The translations under genes were made by a program, and so were the position numbers. Source: Candidatus Fervidifonticultor secundus (GTDB taxonomy: Bacteria > Sysuimicrobiota > Sysuimicrobiia > Sysuimicrobiales > Humicultoraceae). From it: DNA of 64,000 bases. Below, one piece after another: positions 36,544-60,526 of this stretch. The notes under the pieces were generated by a model. The model was given only the letters and a program-made list of their open reading frames with translations. It had not been told where the DNA came from and searched no databases. The stretch's first letter is position 1. Every line of letters begins with the position of its first letter. The stretch spans positions 1 to 64,000 of the forward strand of contig JAVKIP010000008.1 in NCBI GenBank assembly GCA_031459385.1. Reading direction: 5' to 3'.

Positions 36544-36563
36544 TTAACTGACCGGTCAGTCAA
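36544..36563. promoter_or_regulatory. Palindromic operator in the putative promoter of the reductase operon
   Basis: ttaACTGACCGGTCAGTcaa; on the minus strand it fills a 17-nt spacer between TGGACG (-35-like) and TAAAAG (-10-like). Confidence 0.65.
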
Positions 36564-37750
36564 CGTCCATCGGGTGGAGAACCGATTTTGCACAGCCTGA
36601 CGAAGGCATAGCCCTCCATCAACCGACGGGCAGTCCTGGCGTATGCGGCCCGGAGGACCTGCCAGTCTCCCCTAGGCCCCGGCCGCGCATCCGCCGCTAC
36701 GACCATGATGCCGCTGGGATGTCCAAGGCGGATGCGGTCTCCCCCGCCCGTCCGGGCCACCGCGGCCGGTACGCTCCCCGGGAGCACGGCAGCGACGGCG
36801 GCACACGCGGCCGCCGTTCCGGGGAACGCCTTGTGCAGCACAGGCGGTCGCCCGCCCGCCAGGCGGACCAGCAGGTCGACCGACCGGGCCTCCACGGTGG
36901 CACCCCGTAGGGTGGCAAACGGGGCGGGCGGCGCTACCGCCACCGGCAGTGGCACAAGACCGTCACGGGGCACACCCAGCCGGCCCGCCGCTGCCTCCTT
37001 GACGGCCATCATCGCCTCCAGCATGCGTGCGGTGAACGTCTGCGGCCCCTCGGTGCCGCTCATGCCCGCGGCCCGGGCCGGGAAGAAGACGCAGAGGTTG
37101 GCCAGGTCCACGATGGTGACCTCTACCGGACCGAGTCCTGCGACCGGGAGGACATCGCGCACGGCTCCGGTGGGGAGGAGACGGCCCGTGGCGGCGCCGG
37201 CGGCGCCGGCGAAGTCCAGCAGGATCTCCGCCCCTGGATCCGGCACACCGTCCACGACGCAGTCGCCTTCAACGGCCGGACGGCCGCTGCGAACCGGCAC
37301 CAGCGCCGTGTAGACCTTTCCGGTGTTGGTGTTGTGCACCCGCACCGGCGTCAGCGGCTCGGCCGGCCGCACGAACCCTTCTTCGACGGCGTATACGCCC
37401 ACGGCAGCCGAGAGATTGCCGCAGTTGATGTCGTAGTCGACCACCGGCTCGGTGATGCTGACCTGGCCAAAGGTGTAGTCCACGTCGGCGTCGGGGCGCG
37501 TGGGGGGGCCGATGATCGCCACCTTGCTGGTGAGGATGTCGGCACCGCCCAGCCCGTCGATCTGGCGGGGGTCAGGGCTGCCGAACAGCGCCAGAATCAC
37601 GCGGTCGCGCAGGGCCGGGTCGGCTGGCAGGTCGCCGGTTCGCAGGAAGACGCCCTTGCTGGTACCTCCGCGCATGAGCACGCACCGGACCGGCACCTGC
37701 TCGCCGACCATCGGCAGTGCCGCGGGGGAGGCCCGAACGGCCCGCGCCAC
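36560..37750 (-). CDS. PrpF / methylitaconate-isomerase family protein
   Basis: MRGGTSKG, GSPDPRQIDGLGG...TSKVAII, NCGNLSAAVG, HPSG, RTARRLMEG. Confidence 0.9.
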   Translation of the reverse strand: MARAVRASPAALPMVGEQVPVRCVLMRGGTSKGVFLRTGDLPADPALRDRVILALFGSPDPRQIDGLGGADILTSKVAIIGPPTRPDADVDYTFGQVSITEPVVDYDINCGNLSAAVGVYAVEEGFVRPAEPLTPVRVHNTNTGKVYTALVPVRSGRPAVEGDCVVDGVPDPGAEILLDFAGAAGAATGRLLPTGAVRDVLPVAGLGPVEVTIVDLANLCVFFPARAAGMSGTEGPQTFTARMLEAMMAVKEAAAGRLGVPRDGLVPLPVAVAPPAPFATLRGATVEARSVDLLVRLAGGRPPVLHKAFPGTAAACAAVAAVLPGSVPAAVARTGGGDRIRLGHPSGIMVVAADARPGPRGDWQVLRAAYARTARRLMEGYAFVRLCKIGSPPDGR

Positions 37751-37821: not shown

Positions 37822-38964
37822 TTATGCGGCGGCGATCAGCACCGTGCACGCCGCGCCCTCGATGCCTGCGGCTTTGCCCCCGCGGCAGTGAGCCAGACCC
37901 ACCCGCGCCCGGGCGATCTGGCGGGCGCCGGCCTCGCCGCGGATCTGGCGGACGAGTTCGACCACCTGCGCCACGCCGGTCGCCCCCAGCGGATGTCCCT
38001 TGCCCAGCAGGCCGCCGCTGGGGTTGATCGGGCGCCGGCCGCCCAGCGACGCTTCCCCGCGCTCCAGCGCGGCCGGGTAGGCTCCCGGCGGCCACAGCCC
38101 CAGCCCTTCTACCCGCAGGATCTCCGCGATGGAGAAGCAGTCGTGGACCTCGGCAAAGTCGACGTCGTCGGGGCCCACGCCGGCCTGCTCGTAGGCCACC
38201 CGGGCGGTGCGCGCCGTGAGCTCCTCGAACGCCATCGAGCCAGGAGTGGCCTCCACGGCCCCAGTCTGCAGGGCGGCCGCCCGCAGCCGCACGGTGCGGC
38301 TGCGGCCCACCTGGTCCGCCACCCGGTCGCTGCACAAAATCGCGGCGGCGGCGCCGTCGCTCACCGGGGAGCAGTCCAGCAGGCCCAGGGGATCGGCGAT
38401 CGGCCGCGCGCCCAGCACCTCCTCCAGCGTCACGGCTTTCTGGAACTGGGCGAGGGGGTTGCAGCTGGCGTTGTGTTTGTTCTTAACCGACACCAGGGCG
38501 ATCTGCCGGCGGGTGGTGCCGAACTCGGCCATGTGGCGTCGCGCGCGCATGGCGTAGACCGCCGGCATCGTGAGGCCCACGGCCGCCTCCAGGTCGTCCT
38601 CGCCAGGGGTGAGCGCGCCGCGGAAGCGCGACGTCAGGTGCTCGACGCCCACCGCCAGAACCACGTCGTGAGCTCCCGCGGCGATGGCCAGCGCGGCCTC
38701 GCGGACGGCGACGGCGCCGCTGCTGCAGGCGTCTTCCACGTTGGTCAGCGGGATGCCGGCCAGTCCCACCTGCGCCAGGACCCGCTGGCCGGTCACCATA
38801 CCCTGGAAGACGTGCCCGCAGTAGGCGGCCTCGATGCGCCGCGGGTCGATGCCGGCATCGCGGACGGCCTCCAGCACCGCATCTGCGCCCAGGTCGACCG
38901 CTGTGCGGTCGGTGTGCTTGCCGAACTTCGTCATGCCCACGCCGAGGATCCAGACCTCACCCAT
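37822..38964 (-). CDS. SCP2-type thiolase, BbsB-like
   Basis: NVEDACSSG (Cys), HDCF, GHPLGATG; GMVTGQ, YAMRA and GxExAACT recall benzoylsuccinyl-CoA thiolase. Confidence 0.85.
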   Translation of the reverse strand: MGEVWILGVGMTKFGKHTDRTAVDLGADAVLEAVRDAGIDPRRIEAAYCGHVFQGMVTGQRVLAQVGLAGIPLTNVEDACSSGAVAVREAALAIAAGAHDVVLAVGVEHLTSRFRGALTPGEDDLEAAVGLTMPAVYAMRARRHMAEFGTTRRQIALVSVKNKHNASCNPLAQFQKAVTLEEVLGARPIADPLGLLDCSPVSDGAAAAILCSDRVADQVGRSRTVRLRAAALQTGAVEATPGSMAFEELTARTARVAYEQAGVGPDDVDFAEVHDCFSIAEILRVEGLGLWPPGAYPAALERGEASLGGRRPINPSGGLLGKGHPLGATGVAQVVELVRQIRGEAGARQIARARVGLAHCRGGKAAGIEGAACTVLIAAA

Positions 38965-39436
38965 CGCGCACCTCCCTCGCCACGTCCTGTCCGTGGGGGA
39001 CCTGGCACGGGTAGCCCCGGTAGGCCAGCACCGGCCGGCCATCGGACGTCGCCCGCACGGGCTCGACGCGGAGGTCCACCGGTGCGCCGATGCGGACGTC
39101 GCTCGGGTCGATGTCGGCCAGGGGCGCCAGGACCCGTACGCCGTCGGGCAGGTCGACGTATGCCAGGACGTAGGGCGTGGGGAACTCCGGCGTCGACTGG
39201 TGCACCACGGTGTAGGTGTAGACGGTGCCGCGCGAGGACAGGCCGACGACCTCCAGGTCGGTGGCCAGACATCGCGCGCAGACCAGACGACGCGGGAAGT
39301 AGCAGGCCCCGCAGCGCGGGCAGCGGCTGCCCGCCAGGCGCAGCCGCCCGCCCTCGTCAGGCACGAACAGCCCCGGCCGCAGAGGGACCGGCGCTGCAGC
39401 CGTCGCCGCCTGGTGCGCGGCCGCCGGTTCGCTCAC
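38957..39436 (-). CDS. Zn-ribbon/OB-fold (DUF35) thiolase partner, BbsA-like
   Basis: CPRC...CARC, TPYVLAYVDLP..VRV; overlaps the thiolase start. Confidence 0.87.
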   Translation of the reverse strand: MSEPAAAHQAATAAAPVPLRPGLFVPDEGGRLRLAGSRCPRCGACYFPRRLVCARCLATDLEVVGLSSRGTVYTYTVVHQSTPEFPTPYVLAYVDLPDGVRVLAPLADIDPSDVRIGAPVDLRVEPVRATSDGRPVLAYRGYPCQVPHGQDVAREVRDG

Positions 39437-39437
39437 C

Positions 39438-40214
39438 TCAGATCACCTCCACCAGGCGCCACCGGGACGCGGCACGCTCCACCGCCCGCAGCGCCGCGTC
39501 GATGGCCCAGATCATGGCCAGCAGCACGGTCAGACCCGCCAGGACATCACGGGCGTTGAACATCGACTGAGCGAACGCCACCACCACCCCTACGCCGCGG
39601 GAGGCGCCGACGTACTCCCCGACGATGGTCCCGGCCAGGGCAAACCCCATGGTGACGCGCACGGTGCCCAGCAGCCACACCGCCACGGCCGGCAGGTAGA
39701 CGTGCCACAGCAACTGGACGCGGCGGGCGCCGAGCACACGGGCGGCGTGCACCACGTCGCGGTCCACCGCGGTGACCGCGGCATGGGTGTTGAACGCGGC
39801 CACGAAGAAGACCAGGGTGACGACCAGGACGATGCGGGGCGCCGCGCCCACACCCAGCCACAGCACCAGGAGCGGGTAGAGGATCACGCGCGGGACGGCG
39901 TTGCCGGCGGCCAGGAATGGCAGCACGATGCGAGTGGCCCGGGGCGAGGCAGCCAGGGCCCCACCGACCGCGGCACCCAGCGCCACCCCCAGCGCCAGTC
40001 CGCTTAAGGTCACGGCCAGCGTGGCGGTCACGTGCGGCAAAATGTAGCCCGAGGCCACCCAGGCGGCCGCCCGAACCAGGATCGCCGACGGGGTGCTCAC
40101 GTAGAACGGGTCGATGGCCCCCGCGCGCACCCCGGCCTCCCACGCAGACAGCAGGCCGGCCGCAGTGGCCACCCGCGCCAGAGCCAGGAGCGCCCGCCGG
40201 CTAGGTGCGCCCAT
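39438..40214 (-). CDS. NitT/TauT-type ABC permease
   Basis: NAVPRVILYP, GEYVGASRGVG. Confidence 0.88.
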   Translation of the reverse strand: MGAPSRRALLALARVATAAGLLSAWEAGVRAGAIDPFYVSTPSAILVRAAAWVASGYILPHVTATLAVTLSGLALGVALGAAVGGALAASPRATRIVLPFLAAGNAVPRVILYPLLVLWLGVGAAPRIVLVVTLVFFVAAFNTHAAVTAVDRDVVHAARVLGARRVQLLWHVYLPAVAVWLLGTVRVTMGFALAGTIVGEYVGASRGVGVVVAFAQSMFNARDVLAGLTVLLAMIWAIDAALRAVERAASRWRLVEVI

Positions 40215-41046
40215 GGGCAGCCAGGACCTCGTCGCGCAGGTCGGTCCAGATGCGCCGGTAGGTGGCCACGAACGCCTCGCTGCCCCGTACCTCGGTCACG
40301 TCGCGGGGACGGGGCAGGTCCACGGGATAGGCGGCCTTCACGCGGCCCGGCCGGCGGGTCAGCACGATCACGCGGTCGGCCAGGGCGATGGCTTCCTCGA
40401 GGTCGTGGGTGACGAACAGGATGGTGCTGCGGGCCTCGGCCCACAGCGCCAGCAGCTCGTTCTCCATCAGGTTGCGCGTCTGCACATCCAGGGCTGCGAA
40501 CGGCTCGTCCATCAGGATGATGGCCGGACGGTAGACCATGGTCATGGCCAGGGCGACGCGCTTGCGCATGCCGCCCGAGAGCTGCGAGGGGTAGTGGTGC
40601 TCGAACCCGGCCAGGCCGATGCGGTGCATCCACTCCCGGGCGGCCGCGCGGGCGCGGGCAGCGGGGGTCCCGCGCAGAACCAGCGGGAGCGCGACGTTGT
40701 CCAGGGCGGTCTTCCACGGCAGCAGGGTGTCGCGCTGGAAGACGTAGCCGATGCGGCCGGGCTGCAGCCCGGTGCTGGGCGCGCCGAAGATCCGTACCTC
40801 CCCCGCCGAGGGGCGCAGCAGGCCGCAGATCAGGTGGAGCAGCGTCGACTTGCCGCACCCCGACGGCCCGACCACCGAGACGAACTCGCCGGGCGCCACG
40901 CGGAATGACACGTCGGCCAGGGCGGACACCAGCGTGCCGCTCCCCGCAAACGTGCGGGCGAGCCGGTCTGCCTCGATGGCCGGCAGGGAGGGTCTGGCGT
41001 CTGCGGCGGAGAGCGGTGCGGCCGTCGCCGGCGCCTCAGCCTTCAT
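40201..41046 (-). CDS. NitT/TauT-type ABC ATPase
   Basis: GPSGCGKS, LSGGMRKR, MDEPFAALD, THDLEEA. Confidence 0.92.
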   Translation of the reverse strand: MKAEAPATAAPLSAADARPSLPAIEADRLARTFAGSGTLVSALADVSFRVAPGEFVSVVGPSGCGKSTLLHLICGLLRPSAGEVRIFGAPSTGLQPGRIGYVFQRDTLLPWKTALDNVALPLVLRGTPAARARAAAREWMHRIGLAGFEHHYPSQLSGGMRKRVALAMTMVYRPAIILMDEPFAALDVQTRNLMENELLALWAEARSTILFVTHDLEEAIALADRVIVLTRRPGRVKAAYPVDLPRPRDVTEVRGSEAFVATYRRIWTDLRDEVLAAHGRT

Positions 41047-41821
41047 ACCGCGGCTCCTGCCGCCAGACGGACCAGCGGGCGTCCAGCCTGGCCACCGCAG
41101 CGTCCAGCAGCCACACCAGCACCATGGCCACCACCAGCCCTGCCATGACGCGGGACGTCTGGAAGAGGTGCTGCGCGCCGATGATCAGGTGGCCCAGGCC
41201 GCGCATCGACGCCATGTATTCGCCCAGGATGGTGCCGACGAACGCGAACCCCAGGCTAGTCCGGAGGCCGGCGGCGATCCACACCAGCGCCGCGGGGAGA
41301 TAGACGTGGCGGAGCATGGCCGCCGGTGATGCCCCCAGCAAGCGTACCTGCGCCACCAGGGTCCGGTCGATCTCGCGCACGGCCCCCAGGGTGTTGAACA
41401 GGCCCACGAAGAGCACGATCGTGACCACCAGGGCGACCTTGGAGGCGACGCCCAGTCCCAGCCACAACGCCAGCAGCGGGTAGAAGACGATCCGCGGGGT
41501 GGCGTTGAGGGTGGCCAGGGCCGGTTCGCACAGGCTGGCCAGGGGCGGGGCCAGGGCCAGGAGCAGGCCCACCGCCGCCCCCAGCGCCAGGCCCACCACC
41601 AGACCGGCGAGCGCCGCGCCCACCGTGGCACCCAGATGGGGCCACAGTTCGCCGGTCGCAACCCACCGCCAGATCTCTGTGGCTACGGCCGACGGGCGGC
41701 TGGTGAACTCCTCGGACAGACGGCCGGCCCGTACTGCGCCCTCCCAGATCGCCAGGCCTGCCGCTATCACGGCCCCCTGGAGGCCGACGGTGGCCAGCCC
41801 GTCACGCCGCCGGTCGCTCAC
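41036..41821 (-). CDS. NitT/TauT-type ABC permease
   Basis: NATPRIVFYP, GEYMASMRGLG. Confidence 0.88.
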   Translation of the reverse strand: MSDRRRDGLATVGLQGAVIAAGLAIWEGAVRAGRLSEEFTSRPSAVATEIWRWVATGELWPHLGATVGAALAGLVVGLALGAAVGLLLALAPPLASLCEPALATLNATPRIVFYPLLALWLGLGVASKVALVVTIVLFVGLFNTLGAVREIDRTLVAQVRLLGASPAAMLRHVYLPAALVWIAAGLRTSLGFAFVGTILGEYMASMRGLGHLIIGAQHLFQTSRVMAGLVVAMVLVWLLDAAVARLDARWSVWRQEPRYEG

Positions 41822-42900
41822 AGGCCGCTTCCCGCCGCGATGGCCTTGCGCACGAAGCGGTCGTCCACCATCCGCTCCACCGGCACCGCGAACGCCGGGT
41901 CGAGGAGCCGATCCTGCTTGAGGAAGCGGATGACGGTGGCCACGGCTTCGGGCAGGACACGGCCGTCTGGCGACAGCCCGCCCAGGTTAGCCCGGATCAT
42001 CGCCGGCGTCCAGTTCAGCCCAGCCGGCAACGCCCGGGCGATCTCCTCGGGTTTCGCCCGGTGGAGGCGCAGCCAGCGCAGCGTGCGCACGAACGCGTCG
42101 ACCATCGCCTGCGCTGCCTCGGGGTCGCGGGCCACCACGTCCGCACGGGCCAGCAGGCCGCTGCTGATGTGGGCCGCGCCGTAGAGGCGCACCGTCCCCT
42201 CCAGCGTCCGCACGTCGTAGAGCAGGCGCGCCGAGCCGTCCTCCACCAGGGTGGTGATCAGGGGGTCGAGGTAGACCAGGGCGTCGATCGCCTTGCGCCG
42301 CCATGCGGCCAGCGCAGTCGCCGGGCCGCCCACCGGAACGAACTGTACGGCCTCCGGCTCGACCCCCCAGGCGGCCAGGATGTGGCGGGCCTGCATGTGG
42401 GTCGCCGAGCCCAGGCCCGTGACGCCGACCCTGCGGCCGCGCAGGTGCGCCGGCGAGGTGACCTCGCGCAGGTCAGCCTGCGCGATCATGGCCATGGTCT
42501 GCGCGTTGAAGAACGTCAGCAGGAACTTGAGGTCTTTGCCCTGCTCGTGGGCCTTGATGACCTGGGTGATGGTCACGGTGGCGAACTCGGTGTCGCCGCC
42601 GATGAGGGCCGTGGTGGCCTCGGGGCCGCCGCGGAAGTCGACGAACGTCACGCGCCATCCATGGCGGCGCTGGAGGTCGTCGAAGACGCCGAGCCCCATG
42701 GCCACGTAGACAGGCAGGTAGCCCACGACGTTGGGCGGCCCGATGGCCACCCGCAGGTCGCGGCGGGCAGCCCCCGGCGCGGGCGCCGGCCGTCCCGCAG
42801 CAGCCAGCAGGGCCAGCGCGGCGGCCAGGGCCGCCGGCCGCGCCAGCGGCCCCGGCCGCCGCAGCCGTCCACCACATCGTCCGGATTCCATCGCGCTCAC
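41818..42900 (-). CDS. NitT/TauT (NMT1-like) ABC substrate-binding protein
   Basis: Signal peptide, YLPVYVA..LG, GVTGLGSATH. Confidence 0.85.
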   Translation of the reverse strand: MSAMESGRCGGRLRRPGPLARPAALAAALALLAAAGRPAPAPGAARRDLRVAIGPPNVVGYLPVYVAMGLGVFDDLQRRHGWRVTFVDFRGGPEATTALIGGDTEFATVTITQVIKAHEQGKDLKFLLTFFNAQTMAMIAQADLREVTSPAHLRGRRVGVTGLGSATHMQARHILAAWGVEPEAVQFVPVGGPATALAAWRRKAIDALVYLDPLITTLVEDGSARLLYDVRTLEGTVRLYGAAHISSGLLARADVVARDPEAAQAMVDAFVRTLRWLRLHRAKPEEIARALPAGLNWTPAMIRANLGGLSPDGRVLPEAVATVIRFLKQDRLLDPAFAVPVERMVDDRFVRKAIAAGSGL

Positions 42901-42951
42901 CTCCAGGATCGGTGCCGGCGCGCACCATCTGGCGCGTCAGCCGGCCCAGGG

Positions 42952-43704
42952 CTACACGCTCGGACCGGCCAGGCTGCGCCCGCCGCAGACGTAGAGCAGC
43001 TGACCGGTGACGTACGACGCCTCGTCGCTTACGAAGAACGCCACCGCGTGGGCGATGTCGTCGGGGATGCCGATCCGCCCCATGGGGATGGTCTTCAGCA
43101 GGCGCTCCTGCACCTCGTCTTTGAGGCTGCGGAACAGCGGCGTGTCCACCAGCGCCGGCGCGATGGCGTTGACCGTGATGCCGAACCTGGCCAGTTCCAG
43201 GGCCAGGGTGCGGGTGAGGCTCACCACGCCCCCCTTGGCCGCGGCGTAGTTGACCTGCCCGGGGTTGCCCAGCCACGCCCGCGACGAGATGTTGACGATG
43301 CGGCCGTACTGCTGCTCCATCATGAAGGGCACGGCCGCGCGACAGCACAGCCAGTACGACTTGAGGTTGGTGCGCAGCACGTCGTCCCAGTCCTCCTCGG
43401 ACATCTTGGTCAGGTAGCGGTCGCGCGCGATGCCGACGTTGTTGACCAGGATGTCCACGCGCCCGAACGCCTCGCGGGCGCGGGCCACCAGCGCCGCGGC
43501 GCCGTCGGCGCGGCTGACGTCGGCGGCCACGCCCAGCGCCCGGGCGCCGGCGGCGGTCAGCGCGTCGACGACCCGCGCCACGCGCTCCTCCACGATGTCG
43601 TTGACGACCACGCACGCTCCGTCGCGGGCCAGCCGGGCGGCGATTCCCTCGCCAATGCCCTGGCCCGACCCGGTGACGATGGCGACCCGTCCGGCGATGC
43701 CCAT
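42952..43704 (-). CDS. SDR dehydrogenase, BbsD-like
   Basis: TGSGQGIG, YAAAK; MGI..RVA, SRAWLG..GQ and VTGQLLYVCGGRSL match recalled BbsD. Confidence 0.82.
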   Translation of the reverse strand: MGIAGRVAIVTGSGQGIGEGIAARLARDGACVVVNDIVEERVARVVDALTAAGARALGVAADVSRADGAAALVARAREAFGRVDILVNNVGIARDRYLTKMSEEDWDDVLRTNLKSYWLCCRAAVPFMMEQQYGRIVNISSRAWLGNPGQVNYAAAKGGVVSLTRTLALELARFGITVNAIAPALVDTPLFRSLKDEVQERLLKTIPMGRIGIPDDIAHAVAFFVSDEASYVTGQLLYVCGGRSLAGPSV

Positions 43705-43740
43705 CCCGTGCGTCCTCCCCTCGGCCGTCGGTGCCCGGCG

Positions 43741-44529
43741 CTAGCGGCCGGTGAACTGCGGCTCGCGCTTTTCCAGGAACGCCTGGATGCCCTCGCGGCG
43801 GTCGCGGCTGGCGCGCAGCGCCGCGTGCGCCGTGCGCTCCAGGGCCAGCCCCGCCTCCAGGCTCGCATCCGCCGCCAGGTGCACCGCAGTCTTGATGGCG
43901 CGCACTGCCAGCGGCGCGCGGGCCGCGATCGTCCCCGCCAGCGCCCTCGCCGCTTCCAACAGCTGCGGGCCCGGGACCACGCGGTTGACGAGGCCGATGC
44001 GGTAGGCTTCCGCGGCGTCGATGAACTCCCCGGTGAACATCAGCTCCTTGGCGCGCGCTGGCCCCACCAGGCGTGTCAGCCGCTGGGTGCCGCCAGCGCC
44101 GGGCATGCTACCGACCTTGGCTTCCGGGAACCCGAACCGGGCACCCTCCGCCGCAACCCGCAGGTCGCAGGCCAGGGCCAGCTCCAGCCCGCCGCCCAGG
44201 GCGTACCCGTTGATGGCCGCGACGGTAGGGGTGGGCAGCGCCTCCAGCTGCGCGAAGACGCGGCGCACCCGGTCGGCGAAGGGGTCGGGCGCGGTGCCGT
44301 CGTCGGCGTACTCCTGGGCCCGGGCCTTGAGGTCGGCGCCCACGCAGAACGCCTTCTCGCCGGCAGCGGTCACGATCAGGGCGCGCACGGTCCCGTCCTG
44401 CTCGACGGCCGCCAGGACCTCGCCCAGCCGGTCCAGCATCTCGGGCGTCAGGGCGTTGAGGGCCTCGGGGCGGTTGAGGGTCACCACCCCCACAGCCTGC
44501 TCCTGCTGGAACTGCACGATCTCGCTCAC
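43741..44529 (-). CDS. Enoyl-CoA hydratase (BbsH-like)
   Basis: TLNRPEALN, INGYALGGGLELALACDLR, FPEAKVGS; both catalytic Glu present. Confidence 0.85.
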   Translation of the reverse strand: MSEIVQFQQEQAVGVVTLNRPEALNALTPEMLDRLGEVLAAVEQDGTVRALIVTAAGEKAFCVGADLKARAQEYADDGTAPDPFADRVRRVFAQLEALPTPTVAAINGYALGGGLELALACDLRVAAEGARFGFPEAKVGSMPGAGGTQRLTRLVGPARAKELMFTGEFIDAAEAYRIGLVNRVVPGPQLLEAARALAGTIAARAPLAVRAIKTAVHLAADASLEAGLALERTAHAALRASRDRREGIQAFLEKREPQFTGR

Positions 44530-44535
44530 GGATGT

Positions 44536-45768
44536 TCACCTCCGCGCCGGGTCCGTCTGGGGAACCGGTGGCCTCCCTGCCCAACTCTGCACCACGCCCG
44601 CCGCCACCAAGCGGGCGATCTCGTCGTCGGTGATGCCAGCCTCCCGCAGCACCGCCGCGGTGTGCTCGCCCGGTAGCGGTGCCGGCCTGGAGATGCGTGG
44701 GGGCGTCGCGCTCAGCCGAAGCGGCTGGCCCACCACGCGCGCCGCGCCCAGCTGCGGGTGGTGCAGCGCGACCAGCATGCCGTTGTGCACGACCTGCGGG
44801 TGGGCTTCGAGCTCCGGGTAGGTCAGAATGGGGCCGCAGACGATGTCGGCGGCCTCCAGGACGGCCAGCCAGTGCGCCGTGGGCATGGCCCGGAAGATAG
44901 GCGCGAGGGCGTCGCGCAGTTCGACCCTGTGGGCCACCCGCGCCTCGTTGGTCGCAAAGCGCGGGTCGGCGGCCAGGTCTGGCCGGCCCAGGACGGCGCA
45001 CAGCGCGTGCCAGCGCTCGGGCGTGTAGGCCGCCACCATGACGTGGCCGTCTGCGGTGGGGTACGCCTCGTTGGGCGCCGCGTACGGCGCGGCGCTGCCT
45101 GTGCGGCCCGGCGGGGTGCCTGAGGCCAGGTACATGGCGAGCGGGACGGTCTGGAACGCCAGCAGGGCGTCCAGGAGCGACAGGTCCACGCACTGGCCGC
45201 GCCCGGTGCGCTCGCGGGCAAACAGCGCCGCCAGGATGCCGGCCGCGGCCAGGAACCCCGCGGTGGTATCGGCGGCCGGCACGCCCACCTTGACCGGCTC
45301 GCTGTCGGGCGACCCTGTGACGCTCATCAGCCCGCTGGCAGCCTGGACGATCCCGTCCACGCCAGGCCGGTCGTGCCACGGGCCCGAAGCGCCGAAGGCC
45401 GAGATGGCGCAGTAGATCAGCCGGGGGTGGTCGGAGCGCAGCGTGTCGTAGTCAAGGCCCAGCCGCGCCATCACCCCTGGCCGGAAGCTCTCCACCAGGA
45501 CGTCGCTGCCGGCCACCAGGCGCAGGATGACGGGGCGCGCCTGGGGGTGCTTGAGGTCGATGACGATGCTGCGCTTGTTACGGTTCATGCCGATGAAGGC
45601 TGCGGCGACGCCGTCGACGAACGGCGGGCCGAGCCCCCGGCCCCACTCGCCGCCGGGAGGCTCGACCTTCACCACCTCGGCGCCGAGGTCGCCCAGGTAC
45701 ATGGCGCAGATGGGGCCGGCGGCACCCTGGGAGAGGTCGAGCACGCGAATGCCTTCCAGCGCAGTCAC
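44536..45768 (-). CDS. Class III (CaiB/BaiF/BbsEF) CoA-transferase
   Basis: LEGIRVLDLS, LGAEVVKVEPPGGE, NRNKRS, ESFRPG, PAAD. Confidence 0.9.
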   Translation of the reverse strand: MTALEGIRVLDLSQGAAGPICAMYLGDLGAEVVKVEPPGGEWGRGLGPPFVDGVAAAFIGMNRNKRSIVIDLKHPQARPVILRLVAGSDVLVESFRPGVMARLGLDYDTLRSDHPRLIYCAISAFGASGPWHDRPGVDGIVQAASGLMSVTGSPDSEPVKVGVPAADTTAGFLAAAGILAALFARERTGRGQCVDLSLLDALLAFQTVPLAMYLASGTPPGRTGSAAPYAAPNEAYPTADGHVMVAAYTPERWHALCAVLGRPDLAADPRFATNEARVAHRVELRDALAPIFRAMPTAHWLAVLEAADIVCGPILTYPELEAHPQVVHNGMLVALHHPQLGAARVVGQPLRLSATPPRISRPAPLPGEHTAAVLREAGITDDEIARLVAAGVVQSWAGRPPVPQTDPARR

Positions 45769-46397
45769 GGTCGGGCACCGTGCGCCGCGGCGGTCGCCAG
45801 GGGTCGGAGGGCAGCCACCGCGTAGTCGGCGAAGCGCGCGGCGATCTCTGCCGGCGGGTGCTGCCCGTCGGGGCGGTACCACCGCACCATCCAGTTGACC
45901 ATGCCCAGCACCGCGAAGCCCGCCAGGCGGACGTCGGTGGGCGCGAACTCGCCAGCGGCGATGCCGTCGGCGATGATGCGGCGGAAGAGGGCCTCGTAGC
46001 GGTCCCGCCATGCCACCAGCGCCTGGCGGTACGGGGGAGCCAGCGCGCGGCCTTCCTCGATGAAGCAGGCCACGTTGTCGCGGTCGCTGACCAGCGTCAG
46101 CACGTGGAGCCGCACGGCCTGCCGCAGGCGGTCTGCGGCCGGCTCGGCCCCGGCAGCGATACGCTCCAGGTCGGGCAGCGCCCGATCCAGGGTATGCTGG
46201 AGAATCTCGTAAAGCAGGGCCTGCTTGCCACGGACGTGATGGTAGAGCGAGGCCTTCGTGAGCCCCACGGCGCGCGCGATCTCCTGCATCGTGGTCCGCT
46301 CGAACCCCCGGGTGTGGAACAGGGCGGCGGCTGCGCGGAGGACCTGCTCGCGCGTGACGGGTATCCGGCGCTCGGCCCGCGTGACGCTGGTCCTCAT
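45765..46397 (-). CDS. TetR-family regulator (KstR2/PaaR-like)
   Basis: TTMQEIARAVGLTKASLYHH, GMVNWMVRWYRPDG. Confidence 0.9.
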   Translation of the reverse strand: MRTSVTRAERRIPVTREQVLRAAAALFHTRGFERTTMQEIARAVGLTKASLYHHVRGKQALLYEILQHTLDRALPDLERIAAGAEPAADRLRQAVRLHVLTLVSDRDNVACFIEEGRALAPPYRQALVAWRDRYEALFRRIIADGIAAGEFAPTDVRLAGFAVLGMVNWMVRWYRPDGQHPPAEIAARFADYAVAALRPLATAAAHGARP

Positions 46398-46993
46398 CGG
46401 GTATCGTCCGGATGCTGGCCGGCCGCCGTGGCGCAGACGGGCACCGCGGGCGCAGACGTCTGCCGGAGCGCCGTGCCCAGCTGCCACCCGGCCGCAAGCG
46501 CCTTCAGGTTGGGCACGGCGGCCGCCGACAGCCGGCTGCGGACGACGGCCTCCAGCGTGGGCAGCCGCACCACGTCGCACAGCGCGGCCGCCACGCCCAC
46601 GGCGACCATGTTGGCCGGGCGCGTGGTGCCGCTGGCCCGCCTGGCCGCCTCGGTGACGGGGATGGCGTGAATGCGCACCTGCCCCGTCCCCGTGATCGCC
46701 ACGCGATCCGCGTCGACGATGGCGACCCCGCCGTCGGCCACGGCACCCGACCAGCGCGTCCAGGCCTCCGTGGTCAGCGCCACCAGCACGTCGGCCACGC
46801 GCGCCACCGGATAGGCGACGCGCGTGTCGCTGATGACAACGTCGGAGCGGCTGGCGCCACCACGGGAGGCGGGCCCGTATGCCTGCGCGCAGGCCACGCG
46901 CCGGCCCTCCGCCACGGCGGCCTCGGCCAGGACGAGCCCGGCCAGCACGACTCCCTGACCGCCCGCGCCCGAGAATCGTATCGCGAGCCTCAC
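46394..46993 (-). CDS. korC: 2-oxoacid:ferredoxin oxidoreductase gamma subunit
   Basis: SGAGGQG, YGPASRGG.SRSDV, NMVAVG. Confidence 0.85.
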   Translation of the reverse strand: MRLAIRFSGAGGQGVVLAGLVLAEAAVAEGRRVACAQAYGPASRGGASRSDVVISDTRVAYPVARVADVLVALTTEAWTRWSGAVADGGVAIVDADRVAITGTGQVRIHAIPVTEAARRASGTTRPANMVAVGVAAALCDVVRLPTLEAVVRSRLSAAAVPNLKALAAGWQLGTALRQTSAPAVPVCATAAGQHPDDTR

Positions 46994-47898
46994 GGCGTCT
47001 CTCCAGGCCCCGCCGCGTCCACCGTTGCTGCGCGTACGCGGGCGGTGAACTCCGGGCGGTCGATGTCGACCAGCACGCCGGTCTCCACGGGCGGTCGGAC
47101 GGGGGCCGGCCCGGGCTGCAGCAGGGTAGACGCCAGCGGCGCCAGGTGCGCGTCCACGGCGGCGGTGGCGCGGGCCTGGCCGGCCAGCATGGCAGCGCCG
47201 CTACCCAGCCGGTTGTACCGGCCGTAGAACTCCGGGCAGTCGCTCAGGATCTCGATGAACGCGAAGCCGCGGTGGCGCAGGCCGCGGGCGATCAGGTCCT
47301 CCAGCACCAGCGGGGTCCAGACCGTCCCGCGGGCGACGAACGTGGCACCGGCCGCGGCCAGCAGGCGGCATGCGTCGAAGGGCGGCTCCACGTTGCCGGC
47401 CGGCGCCGTGGTGGCCACGCTGCCTTCGGGTGTGGTGGGGGCCAGCTGTCCGCCGGTCATGCCGTAGATCTCGTTGTTGAACAGCAGGCAGGTGAGATCG
47501 ATGTTGCGCCGCGCGGCGTGGATCAGGTGGTTGCCGCCGATGGCCAGGCCGTCGCCGTCGCCGGTGATGACGACCACGTGCAGGTCGGGACGGGCCAGCT
47601 TCAACCCGGTGGCGAACGCGGGGGCACGCCCGTGGGTAGCGTGGAGCGTGCAGAAGTCCAGGTAGCCGGCCAGGCGGCTGCTGCAGCCGATGCCTGCCAC
47701 GACCGCCACGCGGTCCTGGGCCAGTCCCAGGCGGTGGATCGCCCGCAGCAGCGCGCCGGCTGCGATGCCGTGCCCGCATCCCGGGCAGAGGATGTGGGGC
47801 ATCTGGGGCAGGCGGAGGTAGCGGCGCACGTCCACTGGAGGCCGATCGCCGGCCGCAACGCCCGGTGCCGGCGCCAGGCGTGTCCGGGCATCCATCAT
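46990..47898 (-). CDS. korB: 2-oxoacid:ferredoxin oxidoreductase beta subunit
   Basis: CPGCGHG, GIGCS, HGRA, GDGD..AIGGNH, NNEIYGMTGGQ..PTT. Confidence 0.9.
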   Translation of the reverse strand: MMDARTRLAPAPGVAAGDRPPVDVRRYLRLPQMPHILCPGCGHGIAAGALLRAIHRLGLAQDRVAVVAGIGCSSRLAGYLDFCTLHATHGRAPAFATGLKLARPDLHVVVITGDGDGLAIGGNHLIHAARRNIDLTCLLFNNEIYGMTGGQLAPTTPEGSVATTAPAGNVEPPFDACRLLAAAGATFVARGTVWTPLVLEDLIARGLRHRGFAFIEILSDCPEFYGRYNRLGSGAAMLAGQARATAAVDAHLAPLASTLLQPGPAPVRPPVETGVLVDIDRPEFTARVRAATVDAAGPGETP

Positions 47899-49040
47899 GC
47901 GTACCTCCCCACGGGCAGCGCCGCCTGCACGGCAGCCAGAATCTCTTCGGGCGCTATGGGCTCGCCGTCGGCGCGGCAGCACGGGACTACCGGGACCGCG
48001 CCGCAGACGACGCGTTCCACTTCGCGCACCACCTGGCCCAGGTTCATCTCGGCCACCACCAGCGCGTCGCACGACGCCGCCGCCATGCGTAGCGCCCGCT
48101 CGGGGAACGGCCACAGCACCCGCAGGCGCAGTGCCCCCGCGCGGATCCCGGCTCCTCGCGCCAGGTCCACCGCCTCTTCGGCGGCACGCCCGGTGATGCC
48201 GTAGCCGACGACGATCACCAGGGCGTCGTCGGTGCGGTACGCCTCCACCGGCTCCACATCGTCGAACACGGGTGCCAGCTTGGCCAGGCGGCGGCGCTGG
48301 TGCGCTGCCACCACCGCCGGATCCTCCGTGGGGAAGCCGCAGTCGTCGTGGGCCAGTCCCGTAACGTGGAACCGGTAGCCGCTGCCGAAGTCGGCCAGGG
48401 GCGGCACGCCATCGGGGTCCGGCGCGTAGGGCCGGTACGCCCGGGGTGGTCCGGTGGGGCGGCGGCGGGCCGGCAGGCGCGCCGCATCGGGCGGGCGCAG
48501 CACCGCCTCCTCGCGCAGGTGGCCGATCACCTCGTCGTAGAGCACCACCACCGGCGTGCGGAACCGCTCCGCGAGCCCAAACGCGTCGATGGTGAACTGG
48601 TAGACCTCCGCCACGGATGCGGGCGCCAGCACCAGGCTGGGCACGTCGCCGTGGGTGCCCCAGCGGGCCTGCATCACGTCGCCCTGCGCCGGTGCCGTGG
48701 GCAGGCCGGTGCTGGGGCCGCCGCGCATCACGTTCACCACCACGCACGGCACCTCGGCCATGGCGGCGAACCCCAGGTGCTCTTGCATCAGCGAGAAGCC
48801 GGGGCCGCTGGTGGCGGTCATGGCCCGCAGGCCTCCCAGCGAGGCGCCGATCACCGCGGCCAGCGACGCGATCTCGTCCTCCATCTGCACGAACAGGCCG
48901 CCGACCGCCGGGAGCCGGCGCGCCATCTCCTCGGCGATCTCCGACGAGGGCGTGATGGGATAGCCCGCGTAGAAGCGGCAACCCGCAGCGATGGCCCCTG
49001 CGGCGCAGGCGACGTTGCCCTGTACGAGGCGCGCGCTCAC
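47895..49040 (-). CDS. korA: 2-oxoacid:ferredoxin oxidoreductase alpha subunit
   Basis: YAGYPITPSSE, QMEDE, TSGPGFSLM, RGGPSTGLPT, EMNLGQ. Confidence 0.9.
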   Translation of the reverse strand: MSARLVQGNVACAAGAIAAGCRFYAGYPITPSSEIAEEMARRLPAVGGLFVQMEDEIASLAAVIGASLGGLRAMTATSGPGFSLMQEHLGFAAMAEVPCVVVNVMRGGPSTGLPTAPAQGDVMQARWGTHGDVPSLVLAPASVAEVYQFTIDAFGLAERFRTPVVVLYDEVIGHLREEAVLRPPDAARLPARRRPTGPPRAYRPYAPDPDGVPPLADFGSGYRFHVTGLAHDDCGFPTEDPAVVAAHQRRRLAKLAPVFDDVEPVEAYRTDDALVIVVGYGITGRAAEEAVDLARGAGIRAGALRLRVLWPFPERALRMAAASCDALVVAEMNLGQVVREVERVVCGAVPVVPCCRADGEPIAPEEILAAVQAALPVGRYA

Positions 49041-49885
49041 CGTCCCACCCCGGCCGCGGCCCGCGCGTGCACCGTGATGGCGAACTCCGGGCACAGCCAT
49101 TCGCACAGGCGGCATCCCGTGCACCGCTCGTGCGCGACGACCTCCACCGCCCCGCGGCCGTCCGGGCGCAGGATGCTCTCGGGGCAGACGCGCACGCAGA
49201 TGTCGCACGCCTTGCACCAGTTGGCCGCGACCGCCACGCGCCACGCCGCGCCGGGGCCCGGGGGCAGCCACCGCTCGGCCGACGGCAGCGGACGCGGCTC
49301 CAGCCGCCGGCCCTCCTCGAACGCCCGTCGGTTGACCGCGACGGTCCCTGGCGGCACGCACCGCTCGATGGCTTCTTCCCACAGCGCGGCAGGGAACTCG
49401 AGGTAGGTGGACAACGCGCCCAGCAGAATGGTGTTGGCCACCGCCGGCGTGCCCAGTGCCATGGCCAGATCGCGGGCGTCGGCAACCACCACCGGCCCGC
49501 GGTGCCGCGCCAGCGGCGCGGGGTCCAGCTCAGGGTAGCGCACGGTCCAGGCGCGGTGGTCCTGCTGCGCCGCCGGCGGCACGATGCGCGTCGGGTCGAT
49601 GACGAGCAGCCCGCCCGACCGCAGGTAGGGCAGCCAGCGCAGGCCCTCGGCCCATTCGAACGCCACGAGCGCGTCGGCCTCGCCGAGCCCGATCAGCGGG
49701 CTCCACACGACCTCGCCGAACCGCACGTGGCTGAACACCACGCCGCCGCGTTTGGCCATGCCGTGGACCTCGCTCTTCTTGACGTCCAGCCCCGCCGCCC
49801 GTGCCACCTCGCCCAGGACGGTGCTGGCCAGCAGCACGCCCTGGCCGCCGACGCCCACAAGCAGCACGCCCTGCGCCGCCGTCAC
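49037..49885 (-). CDS. iorB: Indolepyruvate oxidoreductase beta subunit fused to a 2[4Fe-4S] ferredoxin (KorD-like)
   Basis: GVGGQG, SEVHGMAKRGGVV.SHVR; C-terminal CKACDICVRVCP and CTGCRLCEWLCP. Confidence 0.87.
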   Translation of the reverse strand: MTAAQGVLLVGVGGQGVLLASTVLGEVARAAGLDVKKSEVHGMAKRGGVVFSHVRFGEVVWSPLIGLGEADALVAFEWAEGLRWLPYLRSGGLLVIDPTRIVPPAAQQDHRAWTVRYPELDPAPLARHRGPVVVADARDLAMALGTPAVANTILLGALSTYLEFPAALWEEAIERCVPPGTVAVNRRAFEEGRRLEPRPLPSAERWLPPGPGAAWRVAVAANWCKACDICVRVCPESILRPDGRGAVEVVAHERCTGCRLCEWLCPEFAITVHARAAAGVGR

Positions 49886-51705
49886 GGCCCCGCACCGTCG
49901 CCCGCGCGGGCCGGGGTGATCGCCCCGGCCGGGCACAGCTGGGAGCACACCGTGCACCCCATGCACAGGCTGGCGTCGATGCCCACTTTGGGGCGCCCCT
50001 CGTACCACTGCGGGATCCAGGCGATCGCCGGGCAGCCCAGCGCCATGCACGCCTGGCAGGCGGTGCAGGCGTCGGGGACCACGGCCAGGGGGCGAGTGCG
50101 GATCTTCACCGGCGACTCCACGCACGGACGGTTGGTGATGACCACCGAGACCCCGGGGTAGGACAGGGCGGCCTCCAGTGCCCGATAGGTCGCCCCGACG
50201 TCGTAGGGGTCGACCACCTCTACCCAGTCGACGCCCAGTGCGCGGCAAAGCGCGGCCAGGTCGACGCGGGGCGCGGGCGCGCCGCGGATCGTCTGGCCTG
50301 TGGCCGGATGCGGCTGGCCGCCGGTCATGGCCGTGGTGCCGTTGTCGAGGATGAGCACGGTGATCGGCGTCTGGTTGTAGACGGCGTCCAGCAGGGCCGG
50401 CAGGCCTGCGTGGAGGAACGTCGAGTCGCCGATGGCGGCCACCACGCGGCCGTCGACACCGCCCGAGCGTGCCAGGCCCATGGCCACGCCGATGCTGGCT
50501 CCCATGGCCAGGCAGGTGTCCATGGCCGCCAGCGGCTGCAATGCTGCCAGCGTGTAGCACCCGATGTCGCCCGCCACCACCGCGCCCAGCCGGCGCAGCG
50601 CCAGGAAGGGCATGGCGTGGGGGCAGCCCGGGCACAGCACCGGCGGCCGGGGCGCATCCGGCGCCTGCAGCGGCGCGGGCCCGGGCCGCGACTGCAGGAC
50701 CCCGGCGCGGATGAACCCCTCGCGGACCACCTCGGGCGTCAGCTCGCCCGTGCGGGGGAAGAACGCCTTACCTTCCACTGTCAGACCCGCCGCCCGCAGT
50801 TCTTCCTCGACGAGCGGGTCCAGTTCCTCGACGACGATGAGGCGGTCGACCGCAGTGGCGAAGGCACGGATGCGCTGAAGCGGCAGCGGGTACGAGAAGC
50901 CCAGCTTCAGGACGCTGGCTTCCGGTAGGACCTCGCGGACGTAGTGGTACGCGCCGCCTGCGACCACCACGCCTACCCGGCGGTCGCGCATCTCCACGGC
51001 GGTGAGCGGTGATGCCTCCGACGCCTCGGCCAGGCGCCGCAGGCGCTCCAGCAACACGGGGTGGCGGGAGCGGGCGTGGGCCGGCAGCATGACCCAGCGG
51101 CCGGGATCCCTGTGGAAGCCCAGGGGTGGCCGCGCGCGGCGCTCGCCCACCTCCACCAGACCACACCCGTGGCTGATGCGGGTCGTCGTGCGAAGCAGCA
51201 CCGGCACCTCGAACGCCTCGCTGAGGTCGAAGGCGGCCAGCGTGAACGTCCGTGCCTCGGCGGGGTCGGCCGGCTCCAGCAGCGGCAGGCCGGCGAAGCG
51301 GGCGTAGTGGCGGTTGTCCTGTTCGTTCTGGGAACTGTGCATGCCGGGGTCGTCGGCCGAGACGATGACGCACCCGGCCGGCGTGCCGGTGTAGCCCAGC
51401 ACCATCAGCGTATCGGCCGCCACGTTGAGGCCCACGTGCTTGGTGGTCACCAGGGCCCGGGCGCCGCCCAGAGCCGCGCCCACCGCGACGTCCAGCGCCA
51501 CCTTCTCGTTGGTCGACCACTCGACGTAGACGTCGTCGTAGACAGCCAGCGCCTCCAGGATCTCGGTGCTGGGCGTGCCGGGATAGCCTGCGGCGACCTG
51601 GACGCCCGCCTCCCAGGCGCCGCGGGCCAGGGCATGGTTGCCCAGCAGCAGCGCCCGGCGGACGGTGGTGCCGGGGGGTGTGGTGCGAGGAGGCGCGCCG
51701 ACCAC
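49882..51705 (-). CDS. iorA: Indolepyruvate (arylpyruvate):ferredoxin oxidoreductase alpha subunit
   Basis: YPGTPSTE, NEKVA, KHVGLNVAAD, SSQNEQD, CPGCPH, GDIGC, IGDSTF, C-terminal ferredoxin. Confidence 0.92.
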   Translation of the reverse strand: MVGAPPRTTPPGTTVRRALLLGNHALARGAWEAGVQVAAGYPGTPSTEILEALAVYDDVYVEWSTNEKVALDVAVGAALGGARALVTTKHVGLNVAADTLMVLGYTGTPAGCVIVSADDPGMHSSQNEQDNRHYARFAGLPLLEPADPAEARTFTLAAFDLSEAFEVPVLLRTTTRISHGCGLVEVGERRARPPLGFHRDPGRWVMLPAHARSRHPVLLERLRRLAEASEASPLTAVEMRDRRVGVVVAGGAYHYVREVLPEASVLKLGFSYPLPLQRIRAFATAVDRLIVVEELDPLVEEELRAAGLTVEGKAFFPRTGELTPEVVREGFIRAGVLQSRPGPAPLQAPDAPRPPVLCPGCPHAMPFLALRRLGAVVAGDIGCYTLAALQPLAAMDTCLAMGASIGVAMGLARSGGVDGRVVAAIGDSTFLHAGLPALLDAVYNQTPITVLILDNGTTAMTGGQPHPATGQTIRGAPAPRVDLAALCRALGVDWVEVVDPYDVGATYRALEAALSYPGVSVVITNRPCVESPVKIRTRPLAVVPDACTACQACMALGCPAIAWIPQWYEGRPKVGIDASLCMGCTVCSQLCPAGAITPARAGDGAGP

Positions 51706-54242: not shown

Positions 54243-54802
54243 GCGCTCACCCACCCCGTCCCGGCCCCTCCGGCGCGGCGGCGCAGCAGGGGTACGATGC
54301 CGCCGGCCTCGAGGATGGCCAGCATCTGCGGGGGCAGCGGCGACCCGGTCAGCACCTCGCCGGTCCGGAGGTTGTGCACGGTCCCCGCTGCCAGGTCGAC
54401 CTGAACCGGGTCGCCGTCGGTCACGGCGGCCGTTGCGCCTGGACAGGTCAGCACCGGCAGGCCGATGGCCACGGCGTTGCGCAGGAAGATACGGGCGAAC
54501 GACGCCGCCACCACGCACCCCACGCCCAGGGCCTGCAGCCCTTCGGGCGCGTGCTCGCGGCTGCTGCCGCACCCGAAGTTCTTCCCGGCGACCACCACGT
54601 CTCCGGGCCGTACCTCGGCGGCGAAGCGCGGGTTCACCGCCTCCAGCACGTGCCGCCGGCGCTCCTCCAGCGGCTCCACCGCGTAGGCGCCGGGCGCCAG
54701 CAAGTCGGTGCTGACGTCGTCGCCGAAACACCACGCGCGGCCGCGGATGGGGACCCGGAACGCGGGCGGGGTGCGCGGGGAGGGGGCATCACGAGCCGCC
54801 AT
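54239..54802 (-). CDS. LeuD/HacB/DmdB-like dehydratase small subunit
   Basis: FGDDVSTD, AGKNFGCGSSREHA, SFARIFLRNA. Confidence 0.9.
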   Translation of the reverse strand: MAARDAPSPRTPPAFRVPIRGRAWCFGDDVSTDLLAPGAYAVEPLEERRRHVLEAVNPRFAAEVRPGDVVVAGKNFGCGSSREHAPEGLQALGVGCVVAASFARIFLRNAVAIGLPVLTCPGATAAVTDGDPVQVDLAAGTVHNLRTGEVLTGSPLPPQMLAILEAGGIVPLLRRRAGGAGTGWVSA

Positions 54803-56078: not shown

Positions 56079-56103
56079 GGGGCGCCTCCAGGGTCGGACC
56101 CGT

Positions 56104-60494: not shown

Positions 60495-60526
60495 CGCGCG
60501 CGATCAGCCTCCGGCGCGCATCCCGG

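Follow-up and report, generated by a model that had tools for sequence, protein, structure and literature searches.

We describe a gene module with likeness to the Bbs proteins of anaerobic toluene degradation in Candidatus Fervidifonticultor secundus. The window, by which we mean the whole stretch of DNA analyzed, comprises 64,000 nucleotides of contig JAVKIP010000008.1 (assembly GCA_031459385.1; positions 1 to 64,000) and has a G+C content of 68-76%. The module lies on the minus strand at positions 37822-45768 and, in transcription order, consists of a family III CoA-transferase (44536-45768; Pfam CoA_transf_3, 2e-136), a crotonase-type enoyl-CoA hydratase (43741-44529; ECH_1, 8e-73), a BbsD-like short-chain dehydrogenase/reductase (SDR; 42952-43704; adh_short_C2, 4e-66), four ATP-binding cassette (ABC) transporter genes, a Zn-ribbon/OB-fold (DUF35) thiolase partner (38957-39436; OB_ChsH2_C, 7e-20; zf-ChsH2, 1e-7) and an SCP-x-type thiolase (37822-38964; Thiolase_C_1, 2e-35; Thiolase_N, 2e-28). 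The open reading frame (ORF) of the thiolase extends to 39042, with the ATG at 38964, which is preceded by a Shine-Dalgarno sequence, as the likely start.

An earlier note on this DNA had named the five enzyme types, and all five were found there, on the minus strand, each supported by a strong Pfam match. The motifs it had listed were likewise all recovered in the translations: QGMVTGQ, YAMRA and GIEGAACT in the thiolase, TPYVLAYVDLP together with a CxxC...CxxC ribbon in the OB-fold protein, and SRAWLG and VTGQLLYVCGGRSL in the SDR. The module contains a single SDR and a single CoA-transferase, as that note had held. It had made no mention of the transporter, which takes up 3.4 of the 7.9 kb and splits the module, nor of the far longer row of co-directional genes whose central part the span forms. 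Upstream of the module this row reads, in transcription order, HacA, HacB, a PaaK-like ligase, a LeuA-like synthase, IorA, an IorB-like gene, a 2-oxoacid:ferredoxin oxidoreductase (OFOR) and a TetR-family regulator; downstream, it continues with a PrpF-family isomerase and four genes resembling subunits of benzoyl-CoA reductase (BCR).

Genomes, loci and scoring

The genome carrying the window is a metagenome-assembled genome (MAG) that is 97.6% complete with 5.5% contamination. Gene calls rest on Pfam and NCBIfam matches, since G+C content at third codon positions, used alone, chose antisense frames in places. NCBIfam results are given as bits against the cut-off of the model ("x of y"). Related loci were collected by a thiolase-based scan with 551 confirmed relatives, the best 80 of 551 being retained. 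Nineteen of these loci, referred to by L labels, have thiolase identities of 59-78%, and the remaining relatives lie at or below 50%. The 19 loci come from MAGs of Acidimicrobiia, Gaiellaceae, Actinomycetes, Kiloniellaceae, Armatimonadota and Candidatus Thermofontivivens (phylum Sysuimicrobiota). Phyletic comparison covered the window genome (G000) together with 40 related genomes from its order, 41 genomes in total. The 31 scored as lacking the cluster include G010 and G019, both flagged as unpublished, on which no positive claim relies. With G044 and G030 counted once, being one and the same, the unique cluster-bearing genomes number 24 in all.

Relationship of the module to Bbs proteins

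Three of the module proteins have Bbs proteins as their nearest solved structures. The SDR matched BbsD best (7pcs_B; 260 bits versus 237 for the next structure) and the thiolase matched BbsB best (279 bits versus 238), with identities of ~51% and ~40%, respectively, both counted from the printed PDB alignments. BbsD is the catalytic subunit of its enzyme, and three homologs of the SDR (76-78% identity) are labeled "BbsD" by JGI. In the thiolase, the stretches ACSSGA, GHPLGATG and AACT align with BbsB. For the OB-fold protein, BbsA was the top match by a narrower margin (77 bits versus 71).

Family models give a different picture, in that the thiolase scores 298 of 750 against the BbsB model (NF053628), compared with 361 bits against the generic NF004720, and the OB-fold protein scores 88 of 250 against the BbsA model (NF053627), its Zn ribbon itself being intact. 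The proposal that the SDR, thiolase, OB-fold protein and hydratase resemble BbsD, BbsB, BbsA and BbsH thus holds in part: it stands for the first three at the level of nearest structure, and is not supported for the hydratase, whose matches are generic crotonases only, with neither a BbsH model nor a BbsH structure among them. Both the hydratase and the SDR also score well on generic models (crotonase and FabG, respectively). A search of plasmids for bbs operons returned generic thiolase/OB-fold pairs only. Judged by these alignments and scores, resemblance to Bbs proteins is genuine for three proteins, but membership of the Bbs families is not supported.

The transporter within the module is of the NitT/TauT type (39438-42900, minus strand) and comprises a solute-binding protein (41818-42900), a permease (41036-41821), an ATPase (40201-41046) and a second permease (39438-40214). 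Pfam matches are to NMT1, BPD_transp_1 and ABC_tran, and SsuA-, TauC- and TauB-like matches all fall under their cut-offs. Among the 19 loci and the window, the transporter is lineage-restricted, occurring only in the window, L002 and L005; in L001, the SDR gene abuts the OB-fold gene with no transporter between them. The TetR-family regulator (45765-46397, minus strand; TetR_N and TetR_C_24; ATG at 46397) is more widely kept, standing ahead of the CoA-transferase gene in 10 related loci.

The isomerase and the upstream genes

Directly downstream of the thiolase, on the same strand, lies the PrpF-family isomerase gene (36560-37750; PrpF, 1e-101). 3-Methylitaconate isomerase (Mii) interconverts itaconate-type and maleate-type dicarboxylates, and a Mii-like role for this protein had been written down ahead of the PDB search. 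In that search it scored 355 bits with Mii of Eubacterium barkeri (3g7k), 231 with PrpF and 185 with LigU. It is ~49% identical to Mii and conserves positions K62 and C96 of 3g7k (within LTSK and NCGN), the reported catalytic residues of Mii. Within the PrpF family, it thus belongs to the Mii branch.

The upstream row begins with an aconitase-family dehydratase of the HacA/LeuC type. Its large subunit (54807-56195, minus strand; Pfam Aconitase, 4e-99) passes both NF001614 (534, cut-off 385) and TIGR01343 (510, cut-off 386), and the adjacent gene encodes a HacB/LeuD-type small subunit (54239-54802, minus strand; Aconitase_C, 65 bits; ATG at 54802). With the subunit genes adjacent and the subfamily score reached, the pair belongs to the LeuCD/HacAB group. 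It is followed by a PaaK-like aryl-acetate-CoA ligase (52950-54254, minus strand; AMP-binding and AMP-binding_C_2) whose start is uncertain (54254, 54242 or 54233) and which scores 508 of 700 and 507 of 646 against PaaK models. Two readings of the neighboring enzymes were ruled out: AcnD/PrpF-type methylcitrate metabolism, by the HacAB-type dehydratase and the Mii-type isomerase, and LigU/LigJ-type protocatechuate cleavage, by the low LigU score.

Next is a short LeuA-family 2-alkylmalate synthase (51719-52942, minus strand; HMGL-like, 3e-44). Its best NCBIfam matches are to isopropylmalate synthase and homocitrate synthase, all under cut-off (197 of 517), and in the ESM Atlas it falls within a clade of short LeuA proteins; it has 408 amino acids and no LeuA regulatory domain. 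LeuA-type condensation hydrolyzes a thioester and is effectively irreversible. No Iso_dh- or LeuB-type dehydrogenase was found among the Pfam-scanned ORFs of the window, which argues that the LeuA/LeuCD-like pair does not serve ordinary chain elongation.

Two ferredoxin-dependent enzymes complete the row. IorA, the alpha subunit of indolepyruvate:ferredoxin oxidoreductase (IOR; 49885-51705, minus strand), exceeds the equivalog cut-off of TIGR03336 (702 bits, cut-off 651). Downstream of it is an IorB-like gene encoding a POR domain and then a 2x[4Fe-4S] ferredoxin-like stretch (49040-49885, minus strand, gene limits approximate; POR, 1e-34; Fer4, 3e-8), an arrangement that identifies the two as an IOR. 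The OFOR (46394-49382, minus strand) has alpha (47895-49382, given as the ORF), beta (46990-47904) and gamma (46394-46993) genes with Pfam POR_N, TPP_enzyme_C and POR domains. It scores 539 against NF006412 (cut-off 411), with the beta and gamma subunits at 273 of 364 and 128 of 235.

Conservation of the cluster

Orthologs of four proteins, namely the thiolase, the LeuA-like synthase, IorA and, at 61% identity or more, HacA, occur in an identical set of 10 of the 41 genomes (G000, G001, G002, G004, G020, G029, G030, G033, G038 and G039), and the synthase and IorA have no match at all in the other 31. A PrpF ortholog at the same identity threshold adjoins the thiolase gene in nine of the ten, the thiolase gene of the tenth being located at a contig end. 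The same linkage extends to the more distant loci, where PrpF directly follows the thiolase in all 17 loci having downstream sequence and the OB-fold gene precedes it in 18 of 19. The synthase lies within 10 kb of the thiolase in 12 of the 19 loci and IorA in nine; HacA-HacB follows the SDR in L003, L006 and L014. A PaaK-like gene is found after PrpF in L002, L017, L018 and L020, and adjoins the synthase gene in six relatives. In L003 and L014, the cluster consists essentially of the seven enzymes of the pathway proposed below plus the TetR regulator. Public metagenomes contain at least 120 clusters of the SDR clade alone (identity of 70% or higher).

The module had been described as an orphan. 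This description has to be given up, as synteny and phyletic pattern tie it to enzymes that could plausibly supply its substrate. One of the ten genomes (G033:C3:53572-59240) has an intact thiolase and an intact PrpF, but its LeuA-like synthase, HacA and IorA each match in two pieces or have an internal stop; decay may be under way in the upstream half of this cluster.

Aromatic context

The isomerase is followed on the minus strand by BcrC-like (36445-35285), BcrB-like (35269-33980), BcrA-like (~33990-33133) and BcrD-like (~33140-32327) genes. With two HGD-D and two BcrAD_BadFG domains, this BcrCBAD-like set has the architecture of a class I benzoyl-CoA reductase. A 2-hydroxyacyl-CoA dehydratase with a family III transferase (Fld/Had type) was considered for these genes and ruled out, as there are two ATPase genes and the best matches are Bcr subunits. 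After them come, in place of Had and Oah, an Amidohydro_2 protein (31403-32284, minus strand, Pfam) and a BadH-like SDR (30654-31481, minus strand, Pfam; TIGR03206, 294 of 431), a pair that may carry out a variant processing of the reduced ring.

The module shares a cluster with a BcrCBAD-like reductase across phyla. Within the order, each of the ten cluster genomes has a BcrC-like gene, compared with three of the 31 others; the gene was also found in 13 of the 15 genomes behind the more distant loci, giving 22 of the 24 unique genomes overall. In six loci (L003, L004, L007, L009, L011 and L013), a three-subunit molybdenum hydroxylase resembling 4-hydroxybenzoyl-CoA reductase (Hcr) directly follows PrpF. 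The hydroxylase of L013 has 4-hydroxybenzoyl-CoA reductase as its best NCBIfam match (alpha 882 of 995, beta 237 of 405, gamma 182 of 258); next to it, Had (435, cut-off 339) and Oah (546, cut-off 464) both pass, and a Dch-like gene follows. Clusters of five relatives contain Had and Oah. Because of this context of Bcr- and Hcr-like proteins, Had and Oah, the product of the thiolase is most likely an aroyl-CoA.

L004, from an Acidimicrobiaceae MAG, additionally has, at 1935-9327 and directly upstream of OB-fold, thiolase and PrpF genes, a PaaK-type ligase gene as well as genes characteristic of phenol carboxylation: PPDK_N and PEP-utilizers proteins (phenylphosphate-synthase-like), UbiD and a HAD-type hydrolase. 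This island suggests anaerobic phenol metabolism.

Missing toluene-pathway enzymes

A whole-genome search for glycyl-radical enzymes resembling pyruvate formate-lyase (PFL; PF02901), the type to which benzylsuccinate synthase (BSS) belongs, gave no match in the window genome or in the 23 further cluster-bearing genomes (0 of 24). Nor is there an Acyl-CoA_dh gene in the window (1-64000); all seven matches in the genome fall outside it, with the nearest one located at C58:132340 of this contig. The absence of BSS and of BbsG from the locus, proposed at the outset, is therefore borne out, the former for the whole genome and the latter for the window.

With 24 of 24 cluster-bearing genomes lacking a BSS-type enzyme, bbs-like genes by themselves are no marker of toluene degradation, as the earlier note had anticipated, and matches to bbsA, bbsB or bbsD in metagenomes can mislead when used as such. 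In PMC12008989, the co-occurrence of bbsA and bcrBC in UBA5794 MAGs is interpreted as toluene degradation.

A proposed pathway to aroyl-CoA

We propose that the Bbs-like genes form the distal half of one conserved pathway that would make an aryl-itaconate without BSS and convert it to aroyl-CoA, a reading which, judged from gene content and gene order, we think has about an even chance of being correct. The pathway would begin with an arylpyruvate (phenylpyruvate or 4-hydroxyphenylpyruvate) derived from phenylalanine or tyrosine; alternatively, the arylpyruvate could arise from an arylacetate by way of the PaaK-like ligase and IOR acting as a reductive carboxylase. The LeuA-like protein, as a putative benzylmalate synthase, would condense arylpyruvate with acetyl-CoA to 2-benzylmalate, which HacAB would dehydrate to benzylmaleate. 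The Mii-like protein, as a candidate benzylmaleate isomerase, would then shift the double bond to give (E)-phenylitaconate (benzylidenesuccinate). The family III enzyme, as a predicted succinyl-CoA:aryl-itaconate CoA-transferase, would form phenylitaconyl-CoA with succinyl-CoA as donor. Hydration by the crotonase, oxidation by the BbsD-like SDR and cleavage by the thiolase/Zn-OB pair would yield (4-hydroxy)benzoyl-CoA and succinyl-CoA. The aroyl-CoA would pass to the BcrCBAD-like reductase, in relatives first through the 4-hydroxybenzoyl-CoA-reductase-like enzyme, and the adjacent four-subunit OFOR may supply reduced ferredoxin. BSS and BbsG would be dispensable in such a route because the unsaturated acid is made directly. 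The scheme employs every conserved gene and requires none further.

A more extended version, which we put forward tentatively and consider rather less than probable, takes the full row to encode the complete conversion of phenylacetate or 4-hydroxyphenylacetate into (4-hydroxy)benzoyl-CoA, with no requirement for oxygen, a radical enzyme or a molybdenum enzyme. Here, the PaaK-like ligase would activate the acid and IOR would serve as arylpyruvate synthase, with the OFOR providing the ferredoxin that drives it and possibly the acetyl-CoA too. The benzylic carbon would leave within succinate and would not be oxidized via phenylglyoxylate.

Several observations weigh against the proposed pathway or parts of it. 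Among the module proteins, the thiolase is nearer (44-49% identity) to thiolases of aerobes in other gene contexts than to BbsB, and the CoA-transferase is more like glutarate- and mesaconate-type enzymes than BbsEF: in the PDB search, it scored 288 bits with SUGCT versus 174 and 148 with BbsE/F, and its best NCBIfam models are those for succinate-glutarate (321 of 750) and succinyl-CoA:mesaconate (279 of 700) transferases. The hydratase has no Bbs-specific signal (generic crotonase 277 of 363; PaaF 251 of 371), its top PDB matches being generic as well. Upstream, the synthase is a deep branch of the LeuA family, with just 120 bits to homocitrate synthase, its top PDB match. IOR is usually oxidative, and its reverse use here is conjecture. 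Downstream, the Bcr subunits all fall under their NCBIfam cut-offs (C 329 of 421, B 220 of 487, A 218 of 578, D 142 of 313). Had and Oah are above cut-off nowhere in the whole window genome (best 100 of 339 and 112 of 464), and none of its 13 molybdenum hydroxylase genes is on this contig, which thus has no Hcr-like gene; as a result, the fate of aroyl-CoA is less clear in this organism. Finally, since the 41 genomes are kin, their shared pattern overstates independence and is suggestive in nature, not a statistical test.

If the proposed pathway is correct, it would constitute a new peripheral entry to benzoyl-CoA, the central intermediate of anaerobic aromatic metabolism, in which amino-acid-type chain elongation is joined to toluene-type beta-oxidation. 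Phenylalanine, tyrosine and arylacetates would then reach benzoyl-CoA without glycyl-radical enzymes or alpha-oxidation of phenylacetyl-CoA. Such a route would be widespread, reaching MAGs of Acidimicrobiia, Gaiellaceae and Sysuimicrobiota-like groups, from which we know of no anaerobic aromatic metabolism. Our literature search, whose coverage excluded subscription journals and supplements, found no paper tying benzylmalate, benzylmaleate, phenylitaconate or methylitaconate isomerase to benzoyl-CoA catabolism.

Alternative explanations

The module could instead carry out beta-oxidation of aryl-acrylates (cinnamate, p-coumarate), in which the CoA-transferase would form cinnamoyl- or coumaroyl-CoA and the hydratase, SDR and thiolase would convert it to (4-hydroxy)benzoyl-CoA and acetyl-CoA, with the LeuA-like, HacAB and Mii-like genes serving some other purpose. 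An aryl-acrylate, being unsaturated, would likewise need no acyl-CoA dehydrogenase (ACAD), the hydratase is a generic crotonase, and the product would suit the Hcr-like and BCR-like neighbors. We nevertheless regard this as unlikely, since no role would be left for five co-operonic genes that are strictly inherited together. Moreover, the enzymes to which the SDR and the thiolase/OB pair come closest have succinyl-branched substrates, and the nearest kin of the CoA-transferase use dicarboxylates and succinyl-CoA.

Another possibility is an independent Bbs-like lower pathway fed from outside with acids of the (E)-phenylitaconate or benzylsuccinate type, for example those released by toluene degraders, which the ABC transporter would take up. 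This would explain why transporter genes are embedded in the module of the window and in those of L002 and L005; phenylitaconate requires no BbsG, and the resemblance to BbsD, BbsB and BbsA would stand. Most related clusters, such as L001, have no transporter, however, and benzylsuccinate itself would be unusable without an ACAD. The invariant link to the synthase, HacAB, isomerase and IOR would also go unexplained, and we consider scavenging improbable.

We find it similarly hard to credit that the same chemistry, leading from 2-oxoacid and acetyl-CoA through alkylmalate, alkylmaleate and alkylidenesuccinate to acyl-CoA and succinyl-CoA, acts on a non-aromatic 2-oxoacid, for instance converting 2-oxoadipate to two C4 units. 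The best named kin of the synthase and HacA are indeed of the homocitrate synthase and homoaconitase types, and the best matches of the CoA-transferase are succinate-glutarate CoA-transferase and SUGCT. Against these similarities stand an equivalog-level IorA and a PaaK-like ligase inside the cluster, the contiguity of thiolase and isomerase with Hcr-like genes (six loci), Had, Oah and Dch, and the near confinement of the module to BCR-bearing genomes. Operation of the pathway in reverse (from benzoyl-CoA and succinyl-CoA to arylpyruvate), or generic fatty-acid beta-oxidation, is very improbable given the irreversibility of the LeuA-type condensation noted above and the catabolic, aromatic cluster context, even though the SDR and hydratase have good FabG and crotonase scores and the Bbs enzymes are reversible in principle according to PMC10818641.

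Other features of the window

Upstream of the HacA gene is a dienoyl-CoA-hydratase (Dch)-like crotonase (57679-58686, minus strand; TIGR03189, 167 of 292). Within 57679-63246, upstream of this crotonase, lies a LIV-type ABC transporter (solute-binding protein, two ATPases and two permeases), and a second PaaK-like paralog (62% identity) begins at the end of the window (63669-64000). On the other side of the row, a sugar-type solute-binding protein (SBP_bac_8) is split over two ORFs (25081-25668 and 24625-25077) and is possibly a broken gene. The window, and with it the contig, opens with a fragment of an IS110-family transposase (2-457).

Comparison with known systems

Plasmid modules of aerobes come closer than BbsB in thiolase sequence, those of Rhodococcus opacus pR1CP1 (L093) and Azospirillum brasilense p3 (L094) sharing the architecture at 49% thiolase identity. 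Both have OB-fold, thiolase and SDR genes with a family III CoA-transferase nearby, and an enoyl-CoA hydratase is seen in L094 only. In the 19 kb viewed of each, these loci differ from the window in having no LeuA-like, HacAB, PrpF, IOR or BCR genes.

Downstream of the module, the locus resembles the BcrCBAD system of Thauera, in which 2-oxoglutarate:ferredoxin oxidoreductase supplies reduced ferredoxin to BCR: the C-B-A-D gene order is the same, and an OFOR and a ferredoxin-like domain are encoded in the same row. In contrast to that system, the subunits score under the equivalog cut-offs, and neither Had nor Oah reaches its cut-off in the window genome.

The pairing of a LeuA-family synthase with a LeuCD/HacAB-type dehydratase is that of 2-oxoacid elongation (LeuA/LeuCD/LeuB, homocitrate and the HphA-D route to homophenylalanine), and benzylmalate is reportedly a product of HphA. 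The cluster differs from these systems in that no LeuB-type dehydrogenase was seen in it, the synthase has no LeuA regulatory domain, and the proposed maleate-type intermediate would be isomerized and cleaved in a CoA-dependent manner instead of being oxidatively decarboxylated.

Mii acts with dimethylmaleate hydratase (DmdAB) in the nicotinate fermentation of Eubacterium barkeri, and here, too, a PrpF-family double-bond isomerase is paired with a two-subunit hydratase of the aconitase family. The proposed direction, from malate-type through maleate-type to itaconate-type acids, and the aryl substituent set the present system apart, as does the presence of a LeuA-like synthase where E. barkeri has dimethylmalate lyase.

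A close parallel for the module is the beta-oxidation of benzylsuccinate by the Bbs pathway of Thauera aromatica and Geobacter metallireducens (BbsEF, BbsG, BbsH, BbsCD and BbsAB), whose steps are summarized in PMC10818641. The same families would perform the last four steps, the proposed intermediates are identical from phenylitaconyl-CoA onward, and a benzoyl-CoA-reductase-like enzyme is encoded nearby. The locus is distinguished from the Bbs systems by having no BSS (0 of 24 genomes) and no BbsG in the window, one SDR in place of the pair of BbsC, a pseudoenzyme, and BbsD, and one CoA-transferase, closer to SUGCT, in place of BbsE and BbsF. Its proposed substrate would come from a 2-oxoacid rather than from toluene and fumarate.

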